Counted from the stretch's first letter, positions 1 through 54,189 are shown. The stretch: 64,000 bases of DNA from Synechococcus sp. (GCA_051439425.1 JBFRWD010000140.1:26309-90308); one strand, 5' to 3'. Made by a program: numbers and translations. The notes: a model not told the origin generated them from the letters alone.

Positions 1-119
1 TCAGTTAGGACAGAGGTTCCGATCGTTGTCAGGTCTAGACATCGCTGAAATGTCCGCATTGGTATGGCCACTGCCATACACCTCATTACCCATCGCTATT
101 AGATGGAGCGCTCGGGCCA

Positions 120-1219: not shown

Positions 1220-1394
1220 GTGCTTTTCTGTCTGTTAGGGGTTTGGGGAGATGTCGCCAGTGTAGGGGCGGGACGAGAGTGCTTTCTTACCTTAGAGTCC
1301 TTTTTGGGGACGGTCCGGGTATTTTGATTTGGAATATGCTGCGATTGCCCTTCAGTGGAAAACGTTCAAACATGGCAAGGCTCTAACTCTAGAC

Positions 1395-1472
1395 CAGTGA
1401 CCCCATCACTGCGGACATTTCAGCGAAGGCAATCCCTGTCTGTATCTAGAGTTGAATGTCCTGACTGAAATG
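1395..1472. repeat. Dispersed ~80-bp structured non-coding element, copy 1
   Basis: Aligns without gaps to 10363-10440; 20-bp identical core CACTGCGGACATTTCAGCGA. Confidence 0.8.
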
Positions 1473-1904
1473 AAAAACGCAATATTCCGGTGGATTTCAC
1501 CGTTCGAGCAGCCGCTAAAGCACGATCGATATCAGTGCCGCCTGCTGCTGATATCGCCAAAGGAGAGTTCTCTGCTCAAGTGAGATTCATTCGCTCCATC
1601 TCTGGAAATGCTGCATAACAACTCCGCTTGGCACGAACGCTTCATTGTCTTTCTCATTTTTGCGACACTGCCCTGACTCGAGTGTTGCTGGCTCGATGAA
1701 GATGTAGGGATGGGTCCTCAAAAAACAAGAGGCAGATATGCCTTGGAGCCGCAGGTGAAGTCGCGAACGTTGAAATCGCGAAATCTGACAAAACGTATCG
1801 ATAATTTGACGATTGTTTACCGATTGGGAGAACGAACCACAAACAGAGTGGCTGTTGCATAGGGTATTGATATTGCTTGCCTGATGTTTCGACTGGGTGT
1901 TCCT

Positions 1905-2570
1905 ATGTACACCTATGCTTTCCTCACCTGTCCCGAGCATACCCTGCATCTCCCCGCCGGAATTAACGGACGGTTGGAGCTTGTATATTGCGACCGTATG
2001 GCTGCTTTGACGGAGCCTGACGCTGATTTCGAGCAGTTCCAGCAGGATGACGACAACTTAGTGCAAGCTGCACTGGCTCACGATCGCGTCATGTGTGCTG
2101 TCTTTGAGCAGGTGCCCCTTATTCCCCTGCAATTTGGCACCTGTTTCCACTCGCACCAGCGACTAGTCGATCATTTAGCCAAACACCAAGATACCTATCT
2201 CAGCAAGCTCGATATGCTGGCAGACTGCGTAGAATACTGCTGTAAGCTGACTCTGCTTGATTCGCCCGACCCTTTGTCCGCCGATCGGCCAGCAGAACAA
2301 ATTATGGTTTCAACTCTTCCACCTTCTAAGGCGCAATCTGTCGATGACAATAATCGGGTTCAGGCAGAGAAAGACGACATCCTAGCGCGAATTGCTCAGA
2401 CCTATCCCCGACTTGTCGCCCATACTCAGGGAGATACGGAGCGGGCTTATGTTCTGATTCAGCGGACTGAAGCGATCGAGCTGAAGGAGAAGGTGATGCG
2501 GTGGCGATCGCAATTGCACAATTGGACATTGGAATTGGGGCAGCCGCTGCCGCCGTATCATTTTGTTTAA
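1905..2570 (+). CDS. GvpL/GvpF-family (GvpW-like) gas vesicle protein
   Basis: MYTYAF start, AHDRV..PLIPLQFGT core and C-terminal GQPLPPYHFV, typical of the GvpL/F family. Confidence 0.8.
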   Translation: MYTYAFLTCPEHTLHLPAGINGRLELVYCDRMAALTEPDADFEQFQQDDDNLVQAALAHDRVMCAVFEQVPLIPLQFGTCFHSHQRLVDHLAKHQDTYLSKLDMLADCVEYCCKLTLLDSPDPLSADRPAEQIMVSTLPPSKAQSVDDNNRVQAEKDDILARIAQTYPRLVAHTQGDTERAYVLIQRTEAIELKEKVMRWRSQLHNWTLELGQPLPPYHFV

Positions 2571-2650
2571 GCAATAGCGCTACAGGCAAAGGAGTCTGTT
2601 CGAGGCATTCTGTCGAACTGTTTGCATACTACCTATTGCGATCGACGAAA

Positions 2651-4051
2651 TCAGCGAATAGCAGTTTTAAGCTGCTCCAGCATGACGTCCGCCCCGAATA
2701 AATTGGCACCTGTTAAATCGGCTCCAGATAGCTGAGCCCCCAACATTGTGGCGTCTTGAAAGTCACAGTCGCGCAAATTTGATGATTGTAAACGAGCATT
2801 GGTGAGATTTGCTCGATAAAGTAAGGCCCCTTTTAAGTTAGCCCCTCTTAAATCGGCTCCTCTTAGATCTGCATCTCGCAAATCAGCCCCCTGCAAATCA
2901 GCACTATTTAAATCGCACCCCACCAGAGAAGCTGCTGACAAATTTGCCCCATTCAGGTTGGATGCATACAGGTTCGCTTGTCGTAAATAGGCTTCGCGTA
3001 GATCGCTATCTCGTAGGTTAATGGCCCGTAGATAAGCCCCGAACAGCAGGGCTTTCCGCATATCTAGATTGGGAAAGTCTCGCTCGCCTGAACCGAACCG
3101 CTCTAATAATTCATCCGTTTTGGTTGAGATGCGACCGGTCTGGGAATTGGCGGGCATAACGATAGGAGACACCGGTTCGGGCAACTCCACGGGAGCATTA
3201 GAGCGAATGCTGCCATCTGGCATGACGGTATTACGAAAGGTGACTCCGTCTAAATTCGCCAGCCCAAGATTGGCTCCACTCAAGTTGGCGTTACTCAGAT
3301 CGGCTCCATTCAGATCCGCTCCTCCCAGATTCGCCCCCAGCAGCTTCGTGCCTTGCAAGGTGGCCAAACTAAGATCGGCCGCATTGAGATTGGCTTCAAC
3401 CAACATGGCTTGGCTGAGATTGGCTCCGGTCAAAATAGCCCCAGTTAGGATAGCCCCAGTTAGATTCGCATCAATGAGATTGGCGTCTCCCAATTTGGCT
3501 TCGGTCAAGTTTACGTAGGGGGCCGAGACCTTAACTAGGTTGGCCTGATATAAATCGGCTTCAGATAGGTTGGTTCGCTTTAATGTCGCTTCAGTGAAAT
3601 TGGCCCCATTCGCATCGCTACGACGGAGGTTGGCCTTGTAGAGGTCTGCCTTTCGAAAGTCCGTTTCCCGTAGGTGGCATCCCTTTAAAAAGGTGTTAAC
3701 CAGTAGAGCCTCGGAAAGGTTTGCACTGTATAGATTAGTCCCGGTTAACCGGGATCCGCTTAGATCGACCCCCTTTAGGTTGCCTGCCGATAGATCTACA
3801 TCTTGAATGCGGGCGCGACGGATACGAGCTTGACTGAGATTGGCACGAGCAAGACTTGAGAGTTTGAACTCGGTTTTATATAAGTCTGATTCCGATAAAT
3901 CGATGTCTTGTAGGTTGGACTGTGAAATCCTGCAGCGGATCAGAGATATTCCTGATAACGGAGCTTCACTCATATCGACGCGTTCGAAGGACAGTTCCTC
4001 GAACTTTTTGCGAGAAGAGCCATAGATTTGCAAGAGTTCTTCGATTTCCAT
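2651..4051 (-). CDS. Pentapeptide repeat protein (two repeat blocks)
   Basis: Long A(D/N)Lxx arrays split by MPDG linker and GERDF motif. Confidence 0.92.
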   Translation of the reverse strand: MEIEELLQIYGSSRKKFEELSFERVDMSEAPLSGISLIRCRISQSNLQDIDLSESDLYKTEFKLSSLARANLSQARIRRARIQDVDLSAGNLKGVDLSGSRLTGTNLYSANLSEALLVNTFLKGCHLRETDFRKADLYKANLRRSDANGANFTEATLKRTNLSEADLYQANLVKVSAPYVNLTEAKLGDANLIDANLTGAILTGAILTGANLSQAMLVEANLNAADLSLATLQGTKLLGANLGGADLNGADLSNANLSGANLGLANLDGVTFRNTVMPDGSIRSNAPVELPEPVSPIVMPANSQTGRISTKTDELLERFGSGERDFPNLDMRKALLFGAYLRAINLRDSDLREAYLRQANLYASNLNGANLSAASLVGCDLNSADLQGADLRDADLRGADLRGANLKGALLYRANLTNARLQSSNLRDCDFQDATMLGAQLSGADLTGANLFGADVMLEQLKTAIR

Positions 4052-4318
4052 GAGGCTCTGGGCAGATGGTTATGCAGTGTGGGCTGAAGATGCCGGACCG
4101 GCTACTCAGAATGAACCCGACCTGGGACTCTGTCTAGCTACTGTACCCGCAAATGCGCCCTTGACTCACGCGCCAGTCAATTGTTGTGCGAGTTCAAATG
4201 GCAGTCACAGACTTAGTTTCAGAGCCTATGGCGGATTCATCTGAAAGTTTAATTTAAGGATTGGGGGAGTTTCAATACGGAGTCCAGAGGTCAACCCCAA
4301 GAATCGTGTTGGTTTTAC

Positions 4319-5479
4319 CTACGATGCCTCATTGGTAGATGCCAGAGTTGATAGGTGGCTGGCGGTGGCTTTGACCGATGCGATCGCGCGTTCGTAGGAC
4401 ATGCGGGTAGGGCCTAGCAAGCTGACGCTGCCCATTGCCACAGGACCGCAAGAATACCCGGCAGAGATTAACGTGCATTGGTGCATAGGTTCGAGGGGAT
4501 TCTCGCTGCCGATGTAGAGCACCAGGCGATCGAGAGTGGTGGGTTCGATGACGGGCCACAGCTCCGCTTGATTTTGCTCCAGGAGTTGCACGACATCCTG
4601 GATCTGTTCGGTTTGGGCAAACTCGGGCTGCCGTAGGAGTCCGGTCATGCCCCCGACAAATACCTGGCCAATGGTGGGGCGGAGGTAATTTTGTTTGATC
4701 GTGCCTAGCAAGTGCTTCAGCCAGTCCCCATAATCGCGAAACTGGCGGTCCATCTGCTGCCAATCGATGTTGAGAATATCGAAAAAGGTCTTGCCCTTTA
4801 ATTCCAAATTGAGGAAGTTATTCAGCAGTTGGAGTTCCTGTTCCAATTGCTCTCGATCTCGCTCCCCAAGAGATGAGACACGAGTGGTTGAGCTGCTTGC
4901 GTTTGGATCGTGCTTCGCAGCCGGTGGCTCTGCGGCTGCTTGCGAGGTTAGGCCGTTGGCATCTCCACCAAGATTGAGCAGAACTGAATGAGTTTGGTAG
5001 GAGTCTGTCACCAGAATGGCCATCACCCGATCGCTTTCCACCGGCACCAGTTGCAAATGTCGGATGGTGGTGCTGTCGGTGGGAGGCGCGGTGATGAGGG
5101 CGATGCACCCGCTCAGGGATGCCAGGATTTGGGTGGCTTGGTGGAGCAGGCGATCGAGGTCTTCTTGCAGTTGGGGTCCCAATTGTTCGGAGAGGGTGTC
5201 GAGAAGCTGGCGTTGCAGATCTTTTGGCTCGTCAATCAGGTTGTCGACGTAAACGCGATAGCCGGAGTCGGAGGGAACTCGACCTGCAGATGTATGGGGT
5301 TGATAGAGCAATCCGGTGCGATCGAGGATGGCCATCACGTTGCGGATTGTGGCAGTACTGATTCCGAGGTCGTAGGACTGGGAGAGGGTTTTTGAGCCCA
5401 CTGGTTCGGCCGTTGCAATGTAGCTGCGAACGGTTGCTTTCAAAATTTGTTGTTGGCGGGAGGTTAAATCGATATGCAT
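4319..5479 (-). CDS. hrcA: Heat-inducible transcription repressor HrcA
   Basis: YIATAEPVGSK, SATIRN-like, QPHTSAGRVPSDSGYRVYVD and LGPTRMSY motifs. Confidence 0.96.
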   Translation of the reverse strand: MHIDLTSRQQQILKATVRSYIATAEPVGSKTLSQSYDLGISTATIRNVMAILDRTGLLYQPHTSAGRVPSDSGYRVYVDNLIDEPKDLQRQLLDTLSEQLGPQLQEDLDRLLHQATQILASLSGCIALITAPPTDSTTIRHLQLVPVESDRVMAILVTDSYQTHSVLLNLGGDANGLTSQAAAEPPAAKHDPNASSSTTRVSSLGERDREQLEQELQLLNNFLNLELKGKTFFDILNIDWQQMDRQFRDYGDWLKHLLGTIKQNYLRPTIGQVFVGGMTGLLRQPEFAQTEQIQDVVQLLEQNQAELWPVIEPTTLDRLVLYIGSENPLEPMHQCTLISAGYSCGPVAMGSVSLLGPTRMSYERAIASVKATASHLSTLASTNEAS

Positions 5480-5915
5480 GAGATCGCATCACCACGGGAT
5501 CGCTGTGCAATTGCCGCCACCTCTCGAACGTTAGCGCTCGCCACTAGGCTAGCGACGAGCGGTTCGAAGATTGCTAACTCTTGGGGAAGACCTCTGGCAA
5601 GGGTTGGGTGCGAGCATGATGGAGCGCGAACCGCGAGCCATCTAAATGCCATCCAGAGTAGCGCAGCCGTTTCTTTGTTTACCAGTGTTTAGCGGAAAGG
5701 GAGCGCTCGTCTGTTCTTATCGAACAGTTCCCTCTTCGCTCTACCAGGCGATCCATTTGCAAAGGAGTGCATGGAAACAATGGCTAGTGAGTGGCAGAAC
5801 CCCTCGGATGGTGCAATTGGATCTCACTGTAGTCGATAGGGTCGCGGTTGCGGCAGATTGCCGAGTAGGATCGAGTCACGATGTCACTCTTACCTAGGCT
5901 CCATTCACTGTGTCC

Positions 5916-6275
5916 ATGCGCATTTTTCTGAAGTCCAAATTGCACAAAGCAACCGTTACGGAAGCAGATGTCCAGTACACGGGATCGATCTCCATCGATC
6001 GCGATCTCATGGATGCAGCGGAGCTATCGGAATACGAAAAAGTGCTGGTGGTGGATAACACCAATGGCAATCGGTTGGAGACTTATGTCATCGAAGGAGA
6101 ACGTGGGTCTGGCACCATTTGCATGAATGGCGCAGCCGCCCATTTGGTGCAAGAGGGGGACGAGGTGACCATCATGTCCTTTCATTTGCAGGAGCACCCT
6201 ACTCCTCCAAAGAAGCTGTTGCTGGGGGCTGGGAATGCGATTGTTCGGGATTTGATGGCGCTTGAAGTGGGATAA
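5916..6275 (+). CDS. panD: Aspartate 1-decarboxylase
   Basis: [18 protein letters not shown] (Gly-Ser self-cleavage site), [16 protein letters not shown]. Confidence 0.96.
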
Positions 6276-6315
6276 AGAGTTGTCTAGAAAAAAGAGTTGT
6301 CTGCAATAAAGAGTT
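6274..6315. repeat. Short tandem repeat (AAAGAGTTGTCT, 17-bp period, ~3 copies)
   Basis: Copies start at 6274, 6291 and 6308, between convergent panD and ppk. Confidence 0.6.
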
Positions 6316-6391
6316 ACGCAGATCGTGAGTCTTGCGCAAATCGTGAGTCCCGATCGGACGCCCGATAGTCTACTTGCGTATCCGGTCGACC

Positions 6392-8956
6392 TTACTGAAT
6401 CACTTGGGAATACTTCTCCATCAATACTCGATGGGTACCGCGAGGAGCTTCCCCTTCACCCGGCTGTCGCTGAATATAGGTGCCGTCAGGCTGTAGTTCC
6501 CAAGCTTGGCGATTATCCGCCAGCATGATGTTCAACAACTCTGTTAGCTCGCCCTGTAAAGTTGGATCGGTAATGGGCGTCACGGCCTCTACCCGGCGGC
6601 TGAGATTGCGTCTCATCCAATCGGCACTACCCAAATAGAATTCTTCCTCTCCCCCATTACCAAAATAGAAAATTCGAGAGTGTTCCAAAAATCGCCCGAT
6701 GACACTAATGACTCGAATGCTCTCACTCATCCCCGGAATTCCTGGTTTTAGGCAGCACATTCCCCGCACAATCAAATCAATTTCAACTCCCAACCGACCG
6801 GCTTCGTAAAGCAGTGAAATAATCAGGGGATCGACAAGCGAATTGACCTTAGCGATGATTCTGCCTTTCTGCCCCAGTCCAGTCTCGTTAAAGCGTTTTT
6901 GGTGGGCAGCTTCGCGGCGAATCATTTCTGTCATGCGCGATCGCAGCGTGATGGGAGCCACCAGCAGCTTGTTAAAGGACTTTTGACGCGAGTAGCCGGT
7001 GAGGTAGTTAAATAGGTCGGTAATATCTGCTCCCAACTCTTCATCGCAGGTGAGCAGTCCTAGATCGGTGTAAAGTTTGGCAGTCTTTGGATTGTAGTTG
7101 CCGGTGCCGATGTGGACGTAGGTACGTAGGCGATCATTCTCGCGCCGGACAACCAGGGCGAGCTTGGTGTGGGTTTTGAGGCCGACCAGACCGTAGACCA
7201 CGTGAACGCCGGATTGTTCCAGCCGCTTGGCCCAGTGAATGTTATTTTCCTCGTCAAATCGGGCCTTGAGTTCTACCAGTACGGCCACTTGTTTGCCTTT
7301 TTCGGCGGCTTCGATTAGTGCGCGGATGACGGGGGAATCCCCAGAGGTGCGATACAGCGTTTGTTTGATGCTGACGACGTCGGGATCGGAAGAGGCAGAC
7401 TTGATGAAGTGGAGGACGCTGGCGTTGAAAGACTCGTAAGGATGATGCAGCAGGATATCACCTTTTTGAATTTCTTCGAAGATGCCGATCGGGCTCTCCG
7501 AGTCCGCAGATTGCAAGCGGGCAGGAATACTCGCCGACCACGACATGTCTTTCAGTTCGGGAACATCTAGGCTTGCCAGGGCAAAGAGTCGGTCTAGGCC
7601 GATCAGACCATCAATTTTATAGATAGACCCTTTATCTAATTCCAACTGGCGCTGCAGCTTGTTGACGATATTGTCCGGGGTGCGGGAGGCAATCTCCATA
7701 CGCACTGCCGAGCCCCCCAGCCGACGCTTGAGCAACTCTTTTTCGATCGCCTGTAGCAGGTCAGATGCTTCCTCTTCTTCAATCTCTAAATCGGCGTTTC
7801 GGGTGACTCGGAAGGGGTAGTACTCCCGAATTTCCATCCCCTTAAACAATGGTGCTAGGTTATGACCGATCGCGTCTTCTAGCGACACAAAGGAATGCTC
7901 GTCCCCCACCTGGATAAACCGGGGCAAGCTGCTAGGGATTTTGACACGGGCAAAGTGTTCTTGCCGATCTTCGGGGTCATAGATTGTGACCGCTAAGTTG
8001 AGACTGAGGTTAGAGATGTAGGGGAAGGGGTGGCCAGGATCGACGGCCAGAGGGGTGAGGACGGGGAAAATATGGAGATCGAAGTAATCTTTGAGGTAAT
8101 CCCGTTGGGTGGAGGTGAGGTCGGAATAGTAGAGCAGATGGATGTCGTGCTTGGCCAGTTCGGGAAGCAATAGCTCGTTAAGGCATTTATATTGCTTGGT
8201 CACTAGGGGGCGGACGGCTTCGCTGATTTTCTTAAGTTGTTCGGTGGGGGTGAGACCATCGGGGGTACGGGAGGTGACGTAGGCCGCAATCTGCTGCTTT
8301 ACGGCTGCCACGCGCACCATGAAAAATTCGTCCAGATTACTGGAGAAGATGGCCAGAAACTTCAGCCGTTCCAACAGTGGGGTGCGTTGGTCTAGGGCTT
8401 CGTGCAAAACGCGGGCGTTGAACTCAATCCAAGTCAGTTCGCGGTTGAGGTAATGTTTGGGAGCTTCTCGTTCAACAGGACCGGTCACTGGGTCGAGTGG
8501 AGGAAGGGGAGTCGCTTGACGAGTGCGAAGGGTACGGCTGGTGCTGGTACCGTTTTTGCTACGGCTACTGCGGGTGGTTTTCGAGCTGGCTTTGCGCTGG
8601 GTTGTCTTGTGTTGGGTTGTCTGGTCCTGAGTAGCACTGCTGCGAGTCGTATTGCTACTTGTCTTACGGGTAGTTTTTCGGGTGGTTGATTTGGAGGTGT
8701 TGGATCTGGAGGTATTCGATTTGGAGGTATTCGAGCGCGCCGTGTTGGATCTCGTAGAAGACTTGGGGGATTCTCGATCAGTTGGGGTGATGCCGTTGGG
8801 ACTTGAGTTGGTTTGAGGAGAGGGGTCAGCGGGGGTGTTGCTGGAAGAGGCAGTCATGGTTGGCAACGGTTGAGGAATGGAGGTGATTTGATGCTGGATC
8901 TCCATTCTTACCCACGTCGACGGTTCTGTATGTGGTTTGTCCATCAACAAAGACAA
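6392..8956 (-). CDS. ppk: Polyphosphate kinase 1 with long low-complexity N-terminus
   Basis: YLNRELTW, SNLDEFFMVRV, LLHHPYESF, KARFDEENN, GSADWMRRNL. Start uncertain (ATG 8857 is plausible). Confidence 0.97.
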   Translation of the reverse strand: MSLLMDKPHTEPSTWVRMEIQHQITSIPQPLPTMTASSSNTPADPSPQTNSSPNGITPTDRESPKSSTRSNTARSNTSKSNTSRSNTSKSTTRKTTRKTSSNTTRSSATQDQTTQHKTTQRKASSKTTRSSRSKNGTSTSRTLRTRQATPLPPLDPVTGPVEREAPKHYLNRELTWIEFNARVLHEALDQRTPLLERLKFLAIFSSNLDEFFMVRVAAVKQQIAAYVTSRTPDGLTPTEQLKKISEAVRPLVTKQYKCLNELLLPELAKHDIHLLYYSDLTSTQRDYLKDYFDLHIFPVLTPLAVDPGHPFPYISNLSLNLAVTIYDPEDRQEHFARVKIPSSLPRFIQVGDEHSFVSLEDAIGHNLAPLFKGMEIREYYPFRVTRNADLEIEEEEASDLLQAIEKELLKRRLGGSAVRMEIASRTPDNIVNKLQRQLELDKGSIYKIDGLIGLDRLFALASLDVPELKDMSWSASIPARLQSADSESPIGIFEEIQKGDILLHHPYESFNASVLHFIKSASSDPDVVSIKQTLYRTSGDSPVIRALIEAAEKGKQVAVLVELKARFDEENNIHWAKRLEQSGVHVVYGLVGLKTHTKLALVVRRENDRLRTYVHIGTGNYNPKTAKLYTDLGLLTCDEELGADITDLFNYLTGYSRQKSFNKLLVAPITLRSRMTEMIRREAAHQKRFNETGLGQKGRIIAKVNSLVDPLIISLLYEAGRLGVEIDLIVRGMCCLKPGIPGMSESIRVISVIGRFLEHSRIFYFGNGGEEEFYLGSADWMRRNLSRRVEAVTPITDPTLQGELTELLNIMLADNRQAWELQPDGTYIQRQPGEGEAPRGTHRVLMEKYSQVIQ

Positions 8957-9120
8957 CGACTGAACTGCTTGGTTCTCAACTCCTGCGATCGCGTTGATGT
9001 TTATGACGATTTTTGGGATAGCCTTGATGTCCCAGGTTGAATAGTTCTCAAGGGCAATATCCCTAGCCGTTTGCTATCACCGGCAATCTTGCTAAATGCC
9101 AATTTCCCGAGCACGACATT

Positions 9121-10095
9121 GTGAGCACTCCCGATCAGAATTCTGCTGAGTCTAACTCTGCGGCCGAACTGCCACCGATACCGGGTTTGTTACCCAAAGC
9201 ACCGAAAGGGTTCCGGTCTGGGTTTGCCGCTTTAGTGGGTCGCCCCAATGTGGGCAAGTCAACCATTCTTAACGGGCTAGTCGGCCAAAAAATTGCGATT
9301 ACCTCTCCGATCGCCCAAACCACTCGTAACCGCTTGCAGGGAATTCTCACCCTACCGATGGCCCAAATCGTACTGGTAGACACTCCCGGCATTCACAAAC
9401 CCCATCATCGCTTGGGGGAGGCGTTGGTCAACACCGCTCGCAGCGCATTGAATTCTGTAGATGTGGTCATTCTGGTGGTAGATGGCTCGGAAATGTCAGG
9501 AAAGGGCGATCGATTCATTGCCAATTGGCTGTCTCCTGACCTTCCCGTCATTCTCTGTCGTAACAAGCAGGATTTGCTGCCAGCAGAGAAGGGTAAACGG
9601 AAGGCGATTGCAGCCTCCTATAAGGAGATGCTGCCGCAGGCCAAAGATGTCAGTATCTCCGCGCTAAATAAAAACAGCCTGGAGCCACTGTTGGGGGCTA
9701 TTGCCTCATCGCTACCGCAAGGACCGTATTACTATCCCCCCGACTTGGTCACCGATCGCCCCGAGCGTTTCATCATGGGGGAATTGATTCGGGAGCAGAT
9801 TTTGCACCACACTCGCAACGAAGTACCTCACTCGGTTGCTATCACGATCGATCGTGTGGAAGAAAGCCCAAAAATTACTCGCATTTTGGCTACAGCGATT
9901 GTGGAGCGGGATTCGCAAAAGGGCATTCTGATTGGTAAGGGGGGGCAAATGCTGAAAACCATCGGCAGCGGAGCCCGTCAACAAATTCAGAAGTTGATTG
10001 TTGGAAAGGTCTACTTGGAACTGTTTGTAAAAGTTCGACCCAAGTGGAGGCAGTCCGCCGGACTTCTGGCTGAATTAGGGTATACCGAGGAGTAG
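9121..10095 (+). CDS. era: GTPase Era
   Basis: GRPNVGKST, DTPGIH, NKQD and KH-domain SQKGILIGKGG. Confidence 0.97.
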   Translation: MSTPDQNSAESNSAAELPPIPGLLPKAPKGFRSGFAALVGRPNVGKSTILNGLVGQKIAITSPIAQTTRNRLQGILTLPMAQIVLVDTPGIHKPHHRLGEALVNTARSALNSVDVVILVVDGSEMSGKGDRFIANWLSPDLPVILCRNKQDLLPAEKGKRKAIAASYKEMLPQAKDVSISALNKNSLEPLLGAIASSLPQGPYYYPPDLVTDRPERFIMGELIREQILHHTRNEVPHSVAITIDRVEESPKITRILATAIVERDSQKGILIGKGGQMLKTIGSGARQQIQKLIVGKVYLELFVKVRPKWRQSAGLLAELGYTEE

Positions 10096-10362
10096 TGTCT
10101 CATGGCGGCGCAACTAGGTCTTCAGCTATTTCTATTATCGATTGTATTTTTCAAAACCCTCTCTGTTTTTGGGGAATAGGAAGAGAAAATCAGCGATCGA
10201 CGCACTACAGGATGCTTTTAAGACAGCAATCCTTAATGGTTGACAGCAAGCCCCAGCAAGCAATTCGATCGCATTAGAAATGGCAAAAAGAAATATTGCC
10301 AGTGGGAATAGAACAATCTTTTCTTTAGACTCGTTGTGAAATTTATGGCGTAGATCGTATAG

Positions 10363-10440
10363 CAGTGACCATACCACTGCGGACATTTCAGCGATGTCCA
10401 GCCCTGACTTAAATTGAATACATTTGTCCTAACTGAGATG
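10363..10440. repeat. Dispersed ~80-bp structured non-coding element, copy 2
   Basis: Same orientation and internal spacing as 1395-1472 (offset 8968 bp). Confidence 0.8.
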
Positions 10441-10871
10441 GCAAACACTATGATTTTCCAAAGGCGAAATTACATTGCGCCAGAAAAGAAAATATATTTT
10501 ATCTAAATTTACAATCAAAATCAAAATATTAGATGAGCTTTTCAGACTTTCTTGATGCTTTCATTCATGGCGTTTAATACCTTTAATTTGATGCATTGTA
10601 AAAATAATCCCCGGTAGCTTGGAGCCATAATCCCCATGACTAGTTCGCACAATCATCTATAGCTACTGGAACTATTACAATTACAATAAGCGTCGAAGAT
10701 TGAATGGCGGGTATCTAACGTGAAACTGCTGAACTCGAAAGTATTTTGGGAAATCGTCGGCTGGTGTTTGGTCTTGGGTGTGTTCTTATCACTTTCTGGT
10801 CTACACCTGCCTACCTAAAGCCGCGATCGCTGCCGTACTTGTCTTTTCCCCACTCGCCTTTCGCCCTACTC

Positions 10872-16833: not shown

Positions 16834-17599
16834 CCTTCTTCAACGCATGAATAAAGTGAATAAAGCAATAGCGCAGCTCGCTTTTGCTGCCATTCCGTAA
16901 GGCCAGAAGAATTCTACAGTGGGAAGGATTATTCTTCCTCCGCATTCTTAATAGCCTTTGGCAATCAGCCCTGGAGAGTTATTTAGGTCTTTATTCCTGG
17001 CCAATCAAGGCTTTGAGCTGTCTTTATACTCCAGACCTTATAGCGGATTGTCGTAGTCTACATAAGTGCTAAAAATCAACCCCCAGCATAGAGTGCTTGC
17101 CCTACTGTCGTTCCCCATAAATTGAGACGCCTGATTAGAAGCCCTAAGAACGCAATTCCTTTGCTGACAAGATATATTCATTATCTGCATACAAGATGGC
17201 GTTGTCTGCAAGACTCCCTATTACCTATTCGTCAGTTCGCTCGTCCGATACGTCCAAGTTCTCTCAAACTTCCTGGGGAAGAAAACCTTTTTAGAAATAG
17301 GTCCTGAATTCTTTGACACTTTGATCGCGAAGTCACTGCAAAGCATTGTGCTAGGCCTATACAGGTGTTTCATTCTTACTGGTGTTCTTGATTTTTTATA
17401 TTGAAGTCCGATAACTTTTATCTCGACATTCGGGCGATCTTGTAAAGGGAGAGCCACTTTAGCAGAACTGAGTATACTCTGAATATGGTGCTAAATCTGA
17501 AGTACAGTAAACTGGCGGCATTTTATCCGTACAGGTTGTCTCTTCAGTTTTGATTGTTCAAGTACAGTTACGGGAAGGACGCATACATCCGAATTCATT

Positions 17600-21286: not shown

Positions 21287-21423
21287 GAGGCTGGGTAAAG
21301 AATTGAACGCAGTGTCTGTTACAGCGATCGGCAATCCGCTATGGAGAGTTTCCTAAGGACTTTTCCTCGCCAATAACTTTTCCTCGCCAATAAAGGATTC
21401 TAGCTGTCTCAACACTCTAGACC

Positions 21424-23457
21424 TTAGAGCGGACTGCTATAGGTCGTGCTGTAACCGCGGGGGGTGATGGGATGGTTGGCATGGATAAAGGTCTTGGAAT
21501 TGCCAATCAACACCGTTGAGAGCATGTCCACTTGAGTGACATCAAAATGTTGTAGTGTCGTCACCACCGTTGTCTCTGAGGGACGAAAAGCAGATTTGAC
21601 GATTGCAACTGGAGTATCGGGTGAACGATGACGGGAGAAAATCTCTCTGGCCGTCGCTAAGCCTTGAGTGCGAGTTCGCGATCGCGGGTTGTACAGTGCC
21701 ACCACAAAATCCGCCGTGGCGGCTGCCTCTAATCGCTGCTCGATGGTCTCCCAGGGGGTGAGTAAATCGGATAGAGAGATGGCACAGAAGTCGTGCATCA
21801 GGGGAGCGCCAACGCGAGCTGCTGCTGCTTGCAAGGCGGTGATCCCCGGAATCACCTCAACCGTGGGAGTTATCCCATCCCATCCGGCACAAGCCAGTTG
21901 TTCCATAACCAGGCCCGCCATACCGTAAATACCGCAATCTCCAGAAGAAATAACGGCAACCGATAGGCCGCGATTCGCGAGTTCAATCGCTGTCTTGGCC
22001 CGCTGAACTTCTTGAGTGATCGGGCTAGCTCGGACGATTTGCTGGGGGGTCAGTAGCGGGGCAATTAAATCGAGATAGAGCTGGTAACCAACCACGACAT
22101 CTGCTTTCGCGATCGCTGCTCGCGCCGCTGGGGCAATTAAACTCAGCGATCCTGGACCCATCCCGACTAGGTGCAACGCTCCGCAGCGATCGCTATATTC
22201 TCGAGCGGCGCGGGCGATTGCTACCGTACAGGCGGCTCCATCCACGCGACTGGACCGTTTCTCCGCAATTAGAGTCGTGGTCGAGGCTGCCAGCAATGCA
22301 GCGGCTTCCGCGACTGATGGAGTTCCGACAGCGTGCTCCACAATGGACGAGGGATTTGGCACCGATACTGTTTTGAGGGCATCAGCTCTATGCCAAACGA
22401 TCGGCCACTGATATCTCTCGGCTAGTTCTACTAACCCTATTTCGTCGCGTTTGATATCGATTGACGTCAATCCGGCGATCGCCTCCCACGCCAGGTTGTG
22501 TTGTTGCAGGCAGGTGCGAATGGCGGTTTCGATGGTTGTCGCCGAGGTGCCTCGTTCGCATCCCACTCCAATCCACAGAGTGCGCGGATGCCAGCAGGCG
22601 TAGGGCCTAGGAAGGTTAGTCGGTGGTTGGCGATCGGAGATCCAGAGGGTGGCGGCTGGAGATGGCTGACTGTCGGAGCAACGATCCCAAACCAAGAACG
22701 GGTGGACTGGTGGGAGGCGATCGCGCCAGATATCCCAACCACAGGTTTGGATAACCGCCACGGATTGCGAGAATCCGACGTCCTCAGCCTTTGAACCGGC
22801 AGCTCTGGCATCAGAAATCTTGTTACCAGCAGTTCTAACAATGGCGCTGGCAACATCGGTCCAGTTCCCTGCTCCCCGCTGCCATCCCATCGGCTCTCCG
22901 AGAGTGTCAATGGCAGGTAGCTGATACGCCGTCGCTCCCGAAGAAATGACAGGAGTGGTATCGAGTAAAGTAGAGACTATGTTTGCCAGTTCATCCCCTC
23001 CTGCGACGTGCCCACCGCATAACGAGATGGCAAATTGTCCGTTCTCATCAATAGCGACTACCGCAGGGTCGGAGTGCTTATCTTCCAGTAACGGTGCGAT
23101 CAGTCGAACAATCGCACCAGTCGCCAGAATGCAGATTAATGCGTCAGCAGAGGCCCACAATGTCTGGAACAAGGTTGCGAGCGGGCCGCTGTACAGTCGA
23201 ACGTCCCTCTCGAGGTTAGGAGACAGTTCGCCAGCACCGTTATCTCTCCTGCTGCTACTGTCGCTGCCGGCGTTTAGTTTGTCCTCAGTGACTTCAGAGT
23301 TTGCAGATTCAGAGTTTGCTGAATAAGTCTCTGGACTAGAATCCTTTGTCCAAATTGTTGCATTGGCCAAACCCGCTCGCAGCCGCCGAGCGATCGCGAC
23401 CGCTGCATGCGTAGGGGCAATAATGGCGATCGCAGAATTTGCTAGAGATAGGGGCAT
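21424..23457 (-). CDS. cobJ: CbiG-CobJ(CbiH) fusion, precorrin-3B C17-methyltransferase
   Basis: CbiG motifs (DPAVVAID, GVGCERG, SVAEAAA) followed by VGMGPG, SSGDCGIYGMAG, HDFCAISLSDLLTPW, YNPRS. Confidence 0.93.
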   Translation of the reverse strand: MPLSLANSAIAIIAPTHAAVAIARRLRAGLANATIWTKDSSPETYSANSESANSEVTEDKLNAGSDSSSRRDNGAGELSPNLERDVRLYSGPLATLFQTLWASADALICILATGAIVRLIAPLLEDKHSDPAVVAIDENGQFAISLCGGHVAGGDELANIVSTLLDTTPVISSGATAYQLPAIDTLGEPMGWQRGAGNWTDVASAIVRTAGNKISDARAAGSKAEDVGFSQSVAVIQTCGWDIWRDRLPPVHPFLVWDRCSDSQPSPAATLWISDRQPPTNLPRPYACWHPRTLWIGVGCERGTSATTIETAIRTCLQQHNLAWEAIAGLTSIDIKRDEIGLVELAERYQWPIVWHRADALKTVSVPNPSSIVEHAVGTPSVAEAAALLAASTTTLIAEKRSSRVDGAACTVAIARAAREYSDRCGALHLVGMGPGSLSLIAPAARAAIAKADVVVGYQLYLDLIAPLLTPQQIVRASPITQEVQRAKTAIELANRGLSVAVISSGDCGIYGMAGLVMEQLACAGWDGITPTVEVIPGITALQAAAARVGAPLMHDFCAISLSDLLTPWETIEQRLEAAATADFVVALYNPRSRTRTQGLATAREIFSRHRSPDTPVAIVKSAFRPSETTVVTTLQHFDVTQVDMLSTVLIGNSKTFIHANHPITPRGYSTTYSSPL

Positions 23458-23516: not shown

Positions 23517-24035
23517 CTACCCTAGAGAAAAAATTGCCGATAGAGTGCTGCTGGTCCAGCTGAGGGCAACAAACCCTCCCACAAACGTGAGGGGAACAAT
23601 CCAAATTAAGCGTTGCCAGGGAACATCAAGGGCGATCGCTGTAGCCCGTAGCTCCCAGACCACAAACCAAACCAATGCTGCCAACCCGGCTAAAGCCCCC
23701 AGCGAGCCCCCCAATGCCTGAGCAGGAGCAATAAATACCCACGGAAGTCCGCCAAAGGCGATCAGTACTAAGACCGTATCGAAGCGTGGATCGAGATTGA
23801 AACTGTACGCTAGCCCGCGCAGCAGAGCCCCAAGAATGACCCAGCCCAGCAATCCGGCGACAGCAGCCAACACCAATGTGAACGGGTTAAATCCTCCCTG
23901 CCGTCCAGCATCCAATGCATTTAGCAAAATTGTGATCGCTCCGGCTTGCCAGATAGGAGGATTTTCCCGCAAGTTGCGAAAGGTCCGGTCTGGGAAAAAA
24001 TAAGCACCGTAGATGTTATCCAGCAGGGCTTCCAT
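23517..24035 (-). CDS. Yip1-domain membrane protein
   Basis: YGAYFFPDRTF followed by 4-5 TM segments, with GLPW motif. Confidence 0.7.
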   Translation of the reverse strand: MEALLDNIYGAYFFPDRTFRNLRENPPIWQAGAITILLNALDAGRQGGFNPFTLVLAAVAGLLGWVILGALLRGLAYSFNLDPRFDTVLVLIAFGGLPWVFIAPAQALGGSLGALAGLAALVWFVVWELRATAIALDVPWQRLIWIVPLTFVGGFVALSWTSSTLSAIFSLG

Positions 24036-24104
24036 AAACGGGGATCCTCACTCGGGCCAGAACTACGTCAGAATCTCGGGTCGGGTTGCTTCAGCAAAGC
24101 GATC

Positions 24105-24172
24105 GCTTCAACGTTCGACTGCTTCAACGTTCACCAGCTTCAACGTTCGACTGCTTCAACGCTCGACTGCTT
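24105..24172. repeat. 16-bp tandem repeat GCTTCAACGTTCGACT, about 4 copies
   Basis: Units start at 24105, 24121, 24137, 24153, with a partial unit at 24169. Confidence 0.85.
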
Positions 24173-24290
24173 TCACGATAGCGCGGCAATCGGGCAGGGG
24201 ATAGCGGTATCCGGGATCCTTGCAGTATCTCCCTCTGTAGTCTGTGATGGCTTGGCACTCCATTCGCCACTGTCGCCCTATCGCCACAGC

Positions 24291-25940
24291 TTATTCGGTG
24301 GTCTGGGTTGCCACCGCCTGGCTAGCTTCTGACTGACTCGACTGGGGGATTTGTGTTTGAGATTTCTGAGTGGGGGACTGCTCGGTCAGGCGGTGAGTAA
24401 GGTGGCATTGACCACCGTTGGTGGGGCGATAGTTGAAGGTGGCTCGAACGTTGCGCGGAACGGCTACAGCAAAGTGATACTCCTGCTTGTTGGGTTCGTC
24501 GCCGAAGAGGACATCGAGCTTGGAGAGCAGTACAGCCAGAGTCAGCTTGATGGTGTACTGGGCAAATACCTGGCCGATACAGGCCCGCTTGCCACGTCCA
24601 AAGGGGAAAAAGTAGCTGCTGCCAAACGGATTTGCCTCGATTGTGGCTCGATCCCAGCGTTCGGGTTTGAACTGCTCGGGATTGTCCCAATGGGAGGAAT
24701 GCCGCTGCAGGAACCAGCTATTGATAAACAGTTGTGTATTGGCTGGGATTTCAAACTCTCCCAACGTGATGGATTTGTCCGGGCACACGTTGCGGGTGAA
24801 GAAGGGAACGGCGGGAAACAGCCGTAGAGCTTCGCGCATGACCTGTTCTAATGGCAGGCAGTTGTTGAGGCGATCGTAGGTGAGCGGTACCACCATTAAT
24901 TCATCCAGCGCCTGCTGCAGCACCATCATCTGGTCTGGGTGTTGCCACAGAAGATGAAGGGCATTGACAATCGCACTGGGAACGGACACGGCTCCCCCCG
25001 GATAAATTCCGGCACAATAATCCCTCAGTTGCCGCTCGGTAAAGTTTCCACTGCTGTACTCCCTAATCCACTGCAGCATTGATTGTGTTGAGGAGCCCGC
25101 TTGGGCATCTTGCGCCACGCGATCGAACAGGGAATACCACTTCTGACTGGCCTGACGGTATTGCTTGTCCCGTGGCTCGGTAGGAATAGCCCAGTTTCCT
25201 AGGGTTGTGGAGAGAGACATCCGTTGGGTGCCAGCATTGCACATAACGACAAATTGCTCGTAAACCTCGGGGGGGAAGATGCGCCCGTTGACCGCCAGGG
25301 AAAACCCGTCAAACGTTATCTTTTGCAGGGTTTCGTAAGCGGTTAATGGCCCCAGTTCCGATTGGCCTACTAGCTCGGCCGCACGGGTTTCCAGGAGTTC
25401 TTGGAGGGGATGAACCTGCGAGCTGAGCCAGTCTTCAAAATAGGGTTGATTGAACGGATCTTTGTCTGACAATCGAGTCCAGGTTTTGCCAGCATCGCGA
25501 GCAATAAACGGACTGTTATCCGTCAGCATGGGAAGCAATGCTTTGCGGGGTAGGTTTTTATAAAAATCGGCTTGGTTCGTGGGGAGAAAACGGTGGACGG
25601 GACAACGACTGGAGGCTTTGGGCGGAGGCTCGCTCTGCCCAGAGGGAGGTTCGCCGACTACGTGTGGCTTCTCCGTATGGGTCAGTTCTTCTGCATCGAG
25701 CAAAACATGGGCGATCGCCTCCGGATCGTTAAGCACAACGGAGGGCTTCGATCCGAGCCACATCACTGAAATTGGGCCATATTCTTTGGCATAGCGGCCC
25801 AACACTCTCCATAACGGTTCACCTGATGTTAAGTCCAGTAAGTTTCCCAATGGGAATTGGGGGGCTGGGCCAGGAATATCGGCCAGTCCCTTGTACTTTT
25901 TGGCATGGATGCTACGAAATAGTGAGGTGAGGAGTGACAC
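24291..25940 (-). CDS. Cytochrome P450 with atypical I-helix
   Basis: EALR (ExxR), FKPERW, FGRGKRACIG heme-Cys motif, IPGP..PLGNL hinge. Start uncertain (GTG 25940 chosen; ORF open to 26147). Confidence 0.9.
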   Translation of the reverse strand: MSLLTSLFRSIHAKKYKGLADIPGPAPQFPLGNLLDLTSGEPLWRVLGRYAKEYGPISVMWLGSKPSVVLNDPEAIAHVLLDAEELTHTEKPHVVGEPPSGQSEPPPKASSRCPVHRFLPTNQADFYKNLPRKALLPMLTDNSPFIARDAGKTWTRLSDKDPFNQPYFEDWLSSQVHPLQELLETRAAELVGQSELGPLTAYETLQKITFDGFSLAVNGRIFPPEVYEQFVVMCNAGTQRMSLSTTLGNWAIPTEPRDKQYRQASQKWYSLFDRVAQDAQAGSSTQSMLQWIREYSSGNFTERQLRDYCAGIYPGGAVSVPSAIVNALHLLWQHPDQMMVLQQALDELMVVPLTYDRLNNCLPLEQVMREALRLFPAVPFFTRNVCPDKSITLGEFEIPANTQLFINSWFLQRHSSHWDNPEQFKPERWDRATIEANPFGSSYFFPFGRGKRACIGQVFAQYTIKLTLAVLLSKLDVLFGDEPNKQEYHFAVAVPRNVRATFNYRPTNGGQCHLTHRLTEQSPTQKSQTQIPQSSQSEASQAVATQTTE

Positions 25941-26097
25941 AAGCGATCCTAGAGTGACAGCAATTTTCCAAATTTCATATCTGTGACGGTGGAATATAAA
26001 TTCGGAACGCGAGGCAAGTGTTATGACAGATTTTGATGTCAAAAAACATATAAATAAATGGCCGGAATTGACGAGCGCAAGCAATGCAAGAAACGGC

Positions 26098-26130
26098 AGC
26101 GATGGATGAACCCTTGGTTCATCCATCGCT
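26098..26130 (-). terminator. Perfect 15-bp hairpin downstream of the hybrid kinase gene
   Basis: AGCGATGGATGAACC-CTT-GGTTCATCCATCGCT; only a weak U-tract on the minus strand. Confidence 0.55.
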
Positions 26131-26279
26131 AGTCCCAAACAGAGCACCCACTGACGTCAGGCCAAGTGAGGGACAGCGAACACTCTCTCTGAATGACATG
26201 GAAAACCCTACCGTTATGCCATGGCTACCGATCGGGCAACAGGGCTGATGCACGCATCTGCAATCGGGGTTACTAGGGG

Positions 26280-40064: not shown

Positions 40065-41253
40065 CAATTGGTTGCGGGTTTTGGCTCCCGTATGAATTTG
40101 TCTGAAAGCCCCTACTGACCAGGAACTCCATCGATTCAGCCTAAAGCGGCTACAGTCCTTTAGGTTGACGGTTGATTGGAGTGATGATGGCTCAATCTCT
40201 CTTCTGGCAACGGATTCCAGCGCATCTGATTTTGAAGTGGTTTGAGAAATTTGTCTTGCCCTACTTGCATATCGGGAGTCGCGGACCTCAGTCGAAGCTG
40301 GCTTTGCATCGGATATTCAACTACATCCTCAAGCTTCTATACCTCGGGTGTTAGTGGAAAGAGCTGCCCATCGAAAACGATAAAGAGGGACAACCTGAGA
40401 TTCACTACAGCAAAATCTATCGTGCCTTTAGGCGCTTCGAAACCCATGGTTGCTTTGATGCCATTTTCACAGGTTCTGTCGTGCAGATTCACCAGAATGA
40501 TGACCTCGACATCCGCGTCATCCATGGTGATGGAACGACGACAGCAGCGAAGAAGGGCGGCGATAATCTTGGATTTAGCGGACACAAACACGTAACAGGC
40601 GACAAGGTGGTTGCCTTCTGCGATCGCCACTGCAATGTCATCGCCCCGTTCGTGACTGCCCCTGGCAACCGTCATGAGTCTCCGCTGTTGAGCGAAGCTC
40701 GCTCAAAAGTGGCACGCACCGCTCAGGCGGTAGGACTGGCGTTGAGCGATACAACGGTCAGTCTGGATTCTGCTTATGACAGCCGGAGAAACCGCAAAGC
40801 CATTTTCAACCGTGGCATGACTCCAAACATTCCGGAAAACTGGCGCAGTAGAAAGACGCCTAAGCGGGGACGCAAGCGTTTGTTCAGAGCAGCGATTTGT
40901 CAAGAGAGGTTTTTCACCATCGAGAGGGGCTTTGCCTGGGAAGACAAATTTAGGCGTCTATTGCTGCGCTTCGAACGGATCGGCCGATTGCACTATGCCT
41001 TAAAGAGTTTGGCACATACGACGATCGATCTCCGGTATTTCGGCAAGAGATCGGCCACGTCTTCAGCATATTCTCTTAGGTCTCGGTACTAGAGATCTCG
41101 ATTTGCTGTGCTTTGAAAAGAAGAATACAGATAGCAGGAACGAGAACCACTGCCGAATCAGATCGGTTATACCCGATTGAATTCACAAGGCAGAATCCAG
41201 CTGGCTATGCAAGTCGACAGTTCTGATTGGTTACATCCAACCCCCGCAACCAG
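40065..41253 (+). mobile_element. IS5-family insertion sequence with inactivated transposase
   Basis: Left IR TGGTTGCGGGTTTTGG (40069-40084), right IR CCAACCCCCGCAACCA (41237-41252). Transposase ~40187-41092 (HGDGT, LDSAYDS, IERGFAWEDKFRRL) has an in-frame TAG at 40352-40354. Confidence 0.85.
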
Positions 41254-45705: not shown

Positions 45706-45894
45706 CACTTCTTCAGCATATTCACTTGGGTCTCGGTAGTAGAGAGATCGATTTGCTGTGCTTTGAAAAGAAGAATATAGATAGCAGGAACGAGAACCAC
45801 TGCCGAATCAGCTCGTTTGTACCCGATTGAATTCAAAACTGGCTATGCAAGTCGACAGTGCTGATTGGTTATATCCAAAACCCGCAACCAGTTG
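45706..45894 (+). mobile_element. Isolated second copy of the IS5 right end
   Basis: Direct repeat of 41056-41253 with a ~12-bp deletion; ends in CCAAAACCCGCAACCAGTTG, a 19/20 inverted match to 40065-40084. Confidence 0.85.
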
Positions 45895-54137: not shown

Positions 54138-54189
54138 GATAGGAAACTCTCCATAGCGAATTGCCGATCGCTATAAGCCTAATAGACCC

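Follow-up and report, generated by a model that had tools for sequence, protein, structure and literature searches.

The window analysed here, a 64,000-nt stretch of DNA from Synechococcus sp. (GCA_051439425.1 JBFRWD010000140.1:26309-90308), holds within its first 10.5 kb three copies of a repeat of ~95 bp, each in an intergenic region of its own (Table 1). Copy w3 begins 41 nt past the stop codon of lrgB, and w1 lies in the divergent region between lrgA (minus strand, start at 1219) and gvpL/F (plus strand, start at 1884 or 1905), so placed that the two copies bracket lrgAB. The third, w2, lies 262 nt past the stop codon of era, with 293 nt or more between it and the EamA ORF.

Table 1. Positions of the repeat copies, their conserved parts and a second repeat family (fam2) in the 64-kb window
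Feature	Position	Strand	Description
Copy w1	1390..1484	+	~95-bp repeat, subfamily A; between lrgA and gvpL/F
Copy w2	10358..10452	+	subfamily B; 3' of era, ahead of EamA ORF
Copy w3	1..78	-	subfamily B; inverted relative to w1 and w2; truncated by window start
Hairpin P1 of w1	1395..1411	+	CAGTG-7 nt-CACTG; 7 pairs, one compensatory change, one U.G
Hairpin P1 of w2	10363..10379	+	
Hairpin P1 of w3	73..57	-	one G.A mismatch breaks the stem
Invariant 17-nt core, w1	1410..1426	+	holds 5' strands of S1 (GGACA) and S2 (TTTCAG)
Invariant 17-nt core, w2	10378..10394	+	as in w1
Invariant 17-nt core, w3	42..58	-	as in w1
3' box, w1	1457..1472	+	TGTCC-nnn-CTGAAATG
3' box, w2	10425..10440	+	as in w1
3' box, w3	12..1	-	cut
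fam2 copy	21319..21441	-	123 nt; begins and ends with the terminal motifs of the ~95-bp element
fam2 copy	16948..17055	-	decayed
fam2 copy	54139..54176	+	partial (3' part only); ends in the shared terminal motif

An earlier sequence-only reading of this DNA had described w1 and w2 as two copies, in the same orientation and in unrelated intergenic regions, of an unrecognised ~80-bp non-coding element with the potential to form a hairpin and an H-type pseudoknot. Realignment returned the same gapless match (56 of 78 positions identical, 1395-1472 against 10363-10440), including an identical 20-nt core (1407-1426 and 10375-10394) for which 100 shuffles gave no match; the loop of the CAGTG..CACTG hairpin differs between these copies as described, and the three settings in the window (lrgB 3' end, lrgA/gvpL-F and era-EamA) are indeed unrelated. 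The similarity spans ~95 bp, however, rather than ~80, and the common orientation holds for w1 and w2 but not for w3, a third copy on the minus strand. No further copies were found in the 64 kb with nhmmer (--max) or with a covariance model run without filters. Spacings of ~1.3 kb and 9 kb, mixed orientations and the genes lying between the copies agree with the earlier view that this is not a CRISPR repeat. The ~510 bp said to separate each copy from the next gene is correct as arithmetic under the guessed starts (1905-1395=510; 10872-10363=509) but is not a feature of the family, since in relatives elsewhere either ~18-73 nt separate the end of the copy from the next start, or the neighbouring gene is convergent.

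The element is non-coding, as had been supposed: six-frame translation found no frame open in all copies, and every frame has stops in some copy. ORFs starting from the 3'-terminal AUG differ in length and lose conservation after ~5 codons, and we rejected a coding fragment or small ORF. The element was also said to be unrecognised, and a search of the whole window against Rfam 15 gave no match that reached gathering; among the matches listed at E<=10 for 1-1700 and 10200-10600, none aligns to the element, and the weak rows at 10285-10538 and 10434-10508, which span or abut w2, score far under gathering. A known RNA family was set aside on these searches. So was a promoter or terminator cassette, as no sigma-70-like or intrinsic-terminator-like site lies inside any full copy.

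Build and conservation of the unit

Complete copies are 94-95 bp long and end in an imperfect terminal inverted repeat of 28-30 bp, the outer ends of which read TATAGC...GCTATA and the inner ends GGACA and TGTCC. When the first 30 nt were compared with the reverse complement of the last 30, the five complete copies gave 16, 17, 19, 12 and 14 matches out of 30 (40-63% identity), against ~7.5 expected from 2000 shuffles of each, with p<=0.003 in four of the five. Hairpin P1 is a local fold within the left arm, and the right inverted end has as its inner part the reverse complement of the 3' box. Two instances of an octamer, CATTTCAG, are present, one immediately internal to the left arm and the other in inverted orientation within the right arm. 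Between these blocks, which are rigidly spaced across the aligned copies, lies a middle of ~28 nt that is fixed in length and differs in sequence between subfamilies. No target-site duplication was seen at the borders of the five complete copies; a short duplication might be masked by the TATA palindrome present at each end.

Conservation is uneven along the unit, as the sequence-only reading had remarked. In the alignment of the three window copies, 49 of 79 columns are invariant, and the longest uninterrupted stretch of identity is 17 columns (permutation p=0.002). Over six copies, three of them from a second genome and chosen by this very 17-mer, identity in the 17-nt core is 1.00; it is 0.92 in the 3' box, which played no part in that selection, 0.45 in the middle and 0.55 at the extreme termini, which we grade as the least conserved part. 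That the core is better kept than the ends reverses the pattern to be expected from an active MITE, and hints at selection for something besides transposition.

Copies in a second genome and a second repeat family

A search for the core 17-mer in 185,579 species genomes gave 90 loci, at three of which the whole element is present. All three are in one cyanobacterial MAG, at unrelated intergenic sites: 5' of pyrG, 5' of a STAND NTPase gene, and after a phycobilisome-linker gene and its terminator. The known set is six to seven copies (three in the window, and three full copies plus one chimera in the MAG), of which three were picked via the core. Apart from the elements, the MAG loci and the window have only two short fam2-repeat matches in common, and six proteins encoded beside the MAG copies had no tblastn match in the window. 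Subfamilies cross the two genomes: MAG copy L046 and w1 share 82% identity, and w2, w3 and MAG copy L053a are mutually 77-83% identical, with 64-72% between subfamily groups. The copies cluster, three within 10.5 kb in the window and two within 1 kb at MAG locus L053, and occur in both orientations.

Among the 87 loci without the element, TGTCC follows within 70 nt in 5, against ~6 expected. Seven cyanobacterial loci (L001, L002, L005, L009, L040, L052 and L056) lie in one orthologous coding gene, asparagine-synthase-like as checked in L040, and being otherwise unlike the element were taken as chance. Two Microcoleus loci (L085 and L088) have similarity around the 17-mer only, or none, and at L036, a separate locus, nothing but the 17-mer matches. 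A Bacillus alkalicola array of thirteen 52-nt units, which lies upstream of an EamA gene, also contains the 18-mer; as the EamA proteins are just 26% identical over 104 aa, this array, too, is treated as probably due to chance rather than as a distant relative. Neither PLSDB nor INPHARED had a blastn match, and a plasmid or phage origin was set aside; a 14-mer from the core was absent from 8.1 M PMC papers and 0.36 M bioRxiv texts.

A second repeat family in the window, fam2, begins with the 9-mer found at the 5' end of the ~95-bp element and closes with its 3' terminal motif. The motif TATAGCRRT occurs four times, against 0.8 expected, and four occurrences were reached in none of 100 shuffles. 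At L053, the MAG interval 2940->2761 is a chimera of a fam2 5' module and a 3' module of the ~95-bp family, with the one terminator-like match that we found in its middle. In the ~95-bp family a short tag, TA(T/C/G)(A/G)G, directly precedes the CAGTG.. hairpin, and the order of tag then hairpin recurs in fam2.

Pairing potential and the structured-RNA question

The two complementary block pairs, GGACA/TGTCC (S1) and TTTCAG/CTGA(A/G)A (S2), are arranged in 1-3/2-4 order as the sequence-only reading described, in the manner of cis-regulatory RNAs with H-type pseudoknots. The 5' hairpin is real, P1 being backed by the sole compensatory change of the element, A-U in two copies and G-C in three. 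In S1, all five of the five pairs are invariant; S2, over six copies of which three were selected by the 5' strands, has no compensatory change, one U.G and one break. The covariation score of the whole structure, 0.074 against 0.055, was equalled by 89 of 500 shuffles, and RNAalifold retains P1 and S1 only. In an H-type pseudoknot, the loops must be long enough to cross the grooves of the stems. Since GGACA and TTTCAG are contiguous, simultaneous formation of both stems here would need a loop 1 of 0 nt, with a loop 3 of 3 nt; in this respect, in the lack of covariation in either stem and in the lack of an Rfam match, the element is unlike such RNAs.

It is unlikely, in our estimate, that the element is a cis-acting structured RNA, possibly exapted from a repeat, in which P1 is followed by either S1 (GGACA:UGUCC) or an 8-bp S2 (CAUUUCAG:CUGAAAUG) as alternatives, S2 hiding the AUG at the 3' end and so acting in untranslated regions as a switch of translation or stability. 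The contrast of core and 3' box with the middle, the significant invariant run in the window copies and the fixed length of the middle would fit such an RNA, as would the substitutions in P1 (one compensatory change, one U.G) and S2 (one U.G). Single-sequence folds do alternate, w1 and L046 forming S2 whereas L053a and w3 form S1, and two MAG copies end 18-26 nt ahead of start codons (pyrG and the STAND NTPase). Against this, compensatory change is absent from S1 and S2 and the score is within reach of shuffling; P1 is disrupted in w3 and one S2 base is lost in L053a; the neighbouring genes are functionally unrelated, and L053a has no gene downstream on its own strand. Fold z-scores are just -1.2 to -2.1, and the antisense strand folds equally well, a lack of strand preference that is expected from symmetry at the DNA level.

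On these grounds (no compensatory change in S1 or S2, no preference of the sense strand in folding, 89 of 500 shuffles), the riboswitch, ribozyme or H-type pseudoknot put forward earlier lacks support, and the covariation among homologues that had been proposed as its check goes against it in spirit, the pseudoknot stems being without compensatory change. As to the earlier remark on a wobble specific to one strand, U.G pairs in S2 of w2 and in P1 of MAG copy L041 are tolerated on the sense RNA only, and the tally is two against one A.C that would form a wobble if the opposite strand were the RNA. The imperfect terminal inverted repeat has S1 as its inner end, and its arms, together with the duplicated octamer, probably give rise to the apparent pseudoknot as a by-product.

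Origin of the repeat and likeness to known elements

Scattered intergenic copies, imperfect inverted ends and occurrence in two related genomes argue for a miniature mobile element rather than a riboswitch or ribozyme, and we consider that the element is probably a non-autonomous, modular dispersed repeat of the MITE or BOX-like kind, ~95 bp long and non-coding. It shares with MITEs a short, non-coding sequence, terminal inverted repeats and copies at non-homologous sites, and differs from them in that no target-site duplication was seen; the modules exchangeable between shared ends, as in the fam2 termini and the L053 chimera, are BOX-like. Further support comes from the occurrence in both orientations, the clustering, the narrow distribution and the decayed or partial fam2 copies. 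A match to an IS or MITE end had been named beforehand as a finding that would count against a regulatory RNA, and the inverted ends, the dispersed copies and the termini held in common with fam2 amount to such a match in spirit.

Under this reading, the termini common to the families, together with the subterminal GGACA/CATTTCAG motifs, would be recognised by a transposase or recombinase acting in trans, which would move or copy the unit into intergenic DNA, with internal modules being shuffled between families that have common ends. An inserted copy would be co-transcribed with its neighbours, and the hairpins of the transcript may incidentally alter mRNA stability or translation.

The passages of PMC10969869 on pneumococcal BOX, RUP and SPRITE elements describe short non-coding intergenic repeats with conserved end modules and a variable middle, without a transposase of their own, whose copies cluster, nest within one another and make RNA hairpins once transcribed. 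As far as that account goes, our element is like them in its conserved end blocks over a variable middle, its two-family chimera and its clustered copies. It has no sequence similarity to them and belongs to another phylum, and it has one middle module of fixed length where BOX has a variable number of boxB units. The same source, in its part on Correia/CREE of Neisseria and other MITEs, gives these as non-coding elements of 100-200 bp with terminal inverted repeats, intergenic and often just upstream of genes, which act via promoters and RNase III cleavage, and cites Nezha as an active cyanobacterial MITE (PMC10969869). The element resembles them in being non-coding, intergenic and bounded by terminal inverted repeats. 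Unlike Correia, with its good inverted ends and TA duplication, it has the poorly matched ends given above and no duplication that could be seen, no copy contains a promoter-like site, and no parent IS is known from the window or the MAG loci.

Counting against a mobile repeat are the weak inverted ends, the missing target-site duplication, the lack of a partner transposase in the DNA searched and the sense-only tolerance of the two U.G substitutions. Neither the 64 kb nor the three MAG loci yielded a transposase with such ends; the sole transposase, DDE_Tnp_1 at 40481-41092, was rejected as a partner because its ends are unlike those of the element. With no duplication, no partner and a core better kept than the ends, the element may have acquired an exapted role as RNA or as a protein-binding site. 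One form of this, which we rate as quite unlikely, is a repeat of mobile origin whose core and 3' box are now selected as a structured RNA, in which the 5' hairpin precedes a two-state long-range pairing (S1 or the 8-bp S2) and the AUG is exposed in one state and hidden in the other; if true, it would be a lineage-specific portable riboregulatory cassette placed before genes such as those for PyrG and the STAND NTPase.

Very unlikely, to our mind, is a host protein-binding DNA module, either a regulon operator or a nucleoid or boundary site, with GGACA and CATTTCAG as inverted half-sites at fixed spacing. The blocks are invariant rather than covarying, their spacing is rigid and the signal is symmetric between strands, as such a module would have it. 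Inverted pairs also twice bracket small membrane-protein genes, lrgAB between w1 and w3 and a 202-aa ORF at L053, but the two pairs are of opposite polarity, tails out in one and heads out in the other. Positions relative to genes are inconsistent as well (3' ends, 5' ends, 18 to >400 nt from starts), the neighbours have no common function and no regulator gene is consistently close. The multi-site protein-DNA element with rigid spacing that had been offered earlier as a fallback is compatible with our reading insofar as the protein is a transposase or recombinase. A composite transposon around lrgAB was set aside on the same opposite polarity of the bracketing pairs in the window and L053; the outer end of w3 lies beyond the window.

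Distinctly improbable, too, is a single-strand hairpin element of the REP/REPIN or IS200/IS605-PATE kind, in which a Y1 (HUH) transposase would recognise the 5' tag and hairpin. In the portions of PMC3733652 dealing with REPs, these are defined by a GTAG or CGTC tag beside a short G+C-rich palindrome, and GTAG-tagged REPs, with RAYTs, are reported in cyanobacteria, among them Anabaena, Nostoc and Cyanothece. Set beside that definition, the element likewise has a short tag, conserved directly before the hairpin in both families, a small hairpin, intergenic dispersal and no target duplication. Its tag, TA(T/C/G)(A/G)G, is neither GTAG nor CGTC, however; its CAGTG/CACTG stem is short (5-7 bp), A+T-richer rather than G+C-rich, with a loop of 5-7 nt; and it is 95 bp long with a long unpaired middle. 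The conserved hairpin folds at the left end only, unlike PATEs derived from IS200/IS605, which have similar subterminal hairpins at both ends. Pfam found no Y1 (RAYT) domain among the 51 window ORFs and 8 MAG ORFs searched.

If the small mobile repeat that we favour is the right reading, the biology is ordinary: one more miniature-repeat family, of use for annotation in a poorly sampled cyanobacterial lineage, where intergenic look-alikes would be flagged and should not be called riboswitches. Less ordinary are the termini common to two families and the internal core, rather than the ends, as the best conserved part, a pattern that would make these copies a small test case of a repeat exapted to a regulatory RNA or protein-binding site. 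The copies also mark possible recombination sites around lrgAB.

Copies of the repeat and their distribution

Two intergenic stretches (1395-1472 and 10363-10440) had been read as copies of an ~80-bp element, alignable without gaps at 56 of 78 identical positions. This similarity is real, as are the 20-mer common to 1407-1426 and 10375-10394 (0 matches in 100 shuffles) and, in both copies, the CAGTG-7nt-CACTG hairpin with its unlike loops and the GGACA-TTTCAG ... TGTCC-nnn-CTGA(A/G)ATG arrangement. The true extent of the unit is ~95 bp, and a third copy, on the minus strand, had been overlooked (w1 to w3 in the table). No further copy was found in the 64 kb by nhmmer --max or by a covariance model without filters, so that all three lie within the first 10.5 kb. 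No frame is open across all copies, the element being non-coding, and no flank similarity was seen outside it. The '510 bp' from each reported copy to the next gene was an arithmetic coincidence of guessed start codons, and the relatives have no such spacing.

Copies of the ~95-bp element, copies of the second family (fam2) and other features
Feature	Position	Strand	Setting
w1	1390-1484	+	divergent region, lrgA / GvpL/F gene
w2	10358-10452	+	between era and EamA transporter gene
w3	1-78	-	cut at window start; begins 41 nt past lrgB stop codon, 3' end of lrgAB (minus strand)
L041 copy			~18 nt upstream of likely GVG start of pyrG
L046 copy			26 nt upstream of STAND (NB-ARC) NTPase ATG
L053a			past phycobilisome-linker gene and terminator; abuts stop codon of convergent 202-aa membrane ORF
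fam2 copy	21319-21441	-
fam2 decayed copy	16948-17055	-
fam2 partial copy	54139-54176	+
fam2 copy in L053	2940->2896
Terminator-like hairpin and T-run	1720-1743	-	w1-gvpL/F gap
120-aa ORF, no Pfam match	1587-1949	-	encloses the hairpin
16-nt unit, four to five tandem repeats	24105-24184		overlap of ORFs 23946-24332 (+) and 24291-26147 (-, cytochrome P450-like)
1914-aa multidomain protein	26280-32024	-	followed by response-regulator gene
DDE_Tnp_1 ORF, 203 aa	40481-41253 region		probably truncated
Downstream direct repeat	45706-45891
L067 tandem array, 52 nt x 13.2	1949-2632		between divergent PadR-like gene and EamA transporter gene

Rfam 15 gave no match to the whole window at gathering thresholds, and relaxing the cut-off to E<=10 around the copies, with both strands covered, listed no match that aligns to the element; two weak rows of this listing, with scores far under gathering, just span or abut w2. 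Searches by blastn against PLSDB plasmids and INPHARED phages returned no match to the element, and a 14-mer from its core was absent from a full-text literature search. A scan of 596 Gb of genome contigs with the invariant 17-mer as query yielded 90 loci, against an estimated chance expectation of ~70, and nhmmer over all 90 found the whole element in just three (L041, L046 and L053), all from one MAG, 'Cyanobacteria bacterium J06642_12'; beside its full copy (L053a), L053 matches the element a second time, over the 3' half. Cyanobacteria seem overrepresented among the scan matches because the 17-mer lies in frame, around position 2000, in an asparagine-synthase-like gene conserved in Microcoleus and Oscillatoriales genomes: seven aligned loci (L001, L002, L005, L009, L040, L052, L056; gene checked in L040) represent this one orthologous coding gene. 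Three further cyanobacterial loci (L036, L085, L088) have the 17-mer itself at most. Elements aside, the only similarity between the MAG loci and the window is two short fam2 matches, and six proteins encoded near the MAG copies had no tblastn match in the window. The Pfam match of pyrG in L041 starts at residue 14 of a longer ORF.

The copies w3 and w1 form an inverted pair around the lrgA-lrgB operon (1-1484), 5' ends inward, and the 202-aa membrane ORF in L053 is bracketed by two copies of opposite polarity to that pair; these bracketings may be fortuitous or may reflect cassettes moved by the repeats. The long w1-gvpL/F gap, with its terminator-like hairpin, may hold unannotated transcription.

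Conservation, pairing and inverted ends

Mean pairwise identity over six copies is 1.00 in the core, 0.92 in the 3' box, 0.81 in the 5' hairpin (P1), 0.65 in the 3' tail, 0.55 at the 5' terminus and 0.45 in the middle. In the three window copies alone, which were not pattern-selected, the invariant 17-column run has a permutation p=0.002. Subfamilies span both genomes, with w1 and L046 82% identical and w2, w3 and L053a mutually 77-83%.

The sequence-only reading had proposed a riboswitch or ribozyme in which P1 precedes a pseudoknot of S1 (GGACA/TGTCC) and S2 (TTTCAG/CTGA(A/G)A). In the six-copy structure alignment (A4) 95% of the cells of these helices are paired, yet the helices hardly vary: all five S1 pairs are invariant, S2 has one U.G (w2), one break (L053a, deleted base) and no compensatory change, and P1 has a single compensatory pair (A-U in w1 and L046, G-C in L041, L053a and w3, A.C in w2) together with a U.G in L041 and, in w3, a G.A break. 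The search pattern fixed the S1 and S2 5' strands in three of the six copies, and compensatory change is therefore detectable there in the window copies only. The covariation score (0.074 vs 0.055) was matched by 89 of 500 shuffles, and RNAalifold retains just P1 and S1. Single-copy fold z-scores are -1.2 to -2.1 for sense and +0.1 to -2.6 for antisense, and DNA folds have the same strand symmetry as RNA folds. The wobble argument for the plus strand has two sense-strand U.G cells on its side and, against it, one A.C cell that would be a wobble on the opposite strand. Because GGACA and TTTCAG are contiguous, a simultaneous H-type pseudoknot needs a 0-nt loop 1, which is not feasible without fraying. 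A riboswitch, ribozyme or pseudoknot is thus not supported.

The first 30 nt of five complete copies, compared ungapped with the reverse complement of the last 30 nt, gave identities of 16, 17, 19, 12 and 14 of 30 (shuffles ~7.5; p<=0.003 in four copies, the remaining one having a 1-nt deletion). This makes the element a unit with imperfect inverted repeats, TATAGC...GCTATA at its outer ends. S1 is the inner end of the two inverted arms, nothing more, and S2 is complementary because the octamer CATTTCAG occurs twice, inverted in the right arm and a second time immediately inward of the left arm.

A second family and the nature of the element

The second family, fam2, a ~123-nt repeat carried by both genomes, came to light from a short stretch of similarity linking L053 to the window. 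Its 5' end is the 9-mer TATAGCAGT of w2 and its 3' end is ..CGCTATAA; the window has four TATAGCRRT sites where 0.8 are expected (none of 100 shuffles reaches that number), one site lying within a coding gene and perhaps being chance. The ends of fam2 form a ~20-bp imperfect inverted repeat, with an 8-nt HIP1-like insertion in one arm. The half copy in L053 is a ~180-nt chimera of the two families, in the order fam2 5' module, P1 3' arm remnant with GGACA (one inserted base), and 3' module and terminus of the ~95-bp element.

We consider the element probably a dispersed repeat of MITE/BOX type, modular and non-autonomous, because its copies are dispersed over unrelated intergenic sites in two genomes with subfamilies common to both, have inverted ends and share termini with fam2, include chimeric, partial and decayed forms, are clustered in mixed orientation, and are narrow in taxonomic range. 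A protein reading the termini and subterminal motifs would mobilise it in trans. In a MITE review (PMC10969869), BOX, RUP and SPRITE elements are described as clustering and inserting into each other, and Correia elements as having regulatory side-effects; the ~95-bp repeat clusters likewise, here also with a fam2 chimera. Tagged hairpin repeats, REPs, are described in cyanobacteria in another paper (PMC3733652). The element adds to a known kind of repeat, and the original observation is confirmed and extended.

Against mobility count the weak inverted ends, the lack of a visible target-site duplication in the five complete copies, of a partner transposase in the 64-kb window or the three MAG loci and of a promoter-like site within any copy, and extreme ends that are the least conserved beside an invariant internal block. 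Because of this pattern there is room for an exapted role, either as a structured RNA, which is unlikely, or as a host protein-binding module, which we regard as quite improbable. A REP/IS200-like single-strand mechanism, a variant of the mobile reading, has a similarly low probability.

Other repeats and genes

The Bacillus alkalicola locus L067 carries a tandem array in whose unit the same 18-mer makes up the arm plus loop of a GCGGACA/TGTCCGC hairpin, with a ~12-nt variable tail after it; the array has no Rfam match, and its likeness to the cyanobacterial core is probably chance. DDE_Tnp_1 (40481-41092), the window's only transposase, was rejected as partner, its ends being unrelated to the element. 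About 190 bp at and after the 3' end of this ORF recur as a direct repeat 4.65 kb downstream (92% identity), with a 1141-aa GlcNAc-2-epimerase/Big_5 gene between the two. The 1914-aa protein combines Ser/Thr kinase, AAA_16, GAF and HisKA/HATPase domains.
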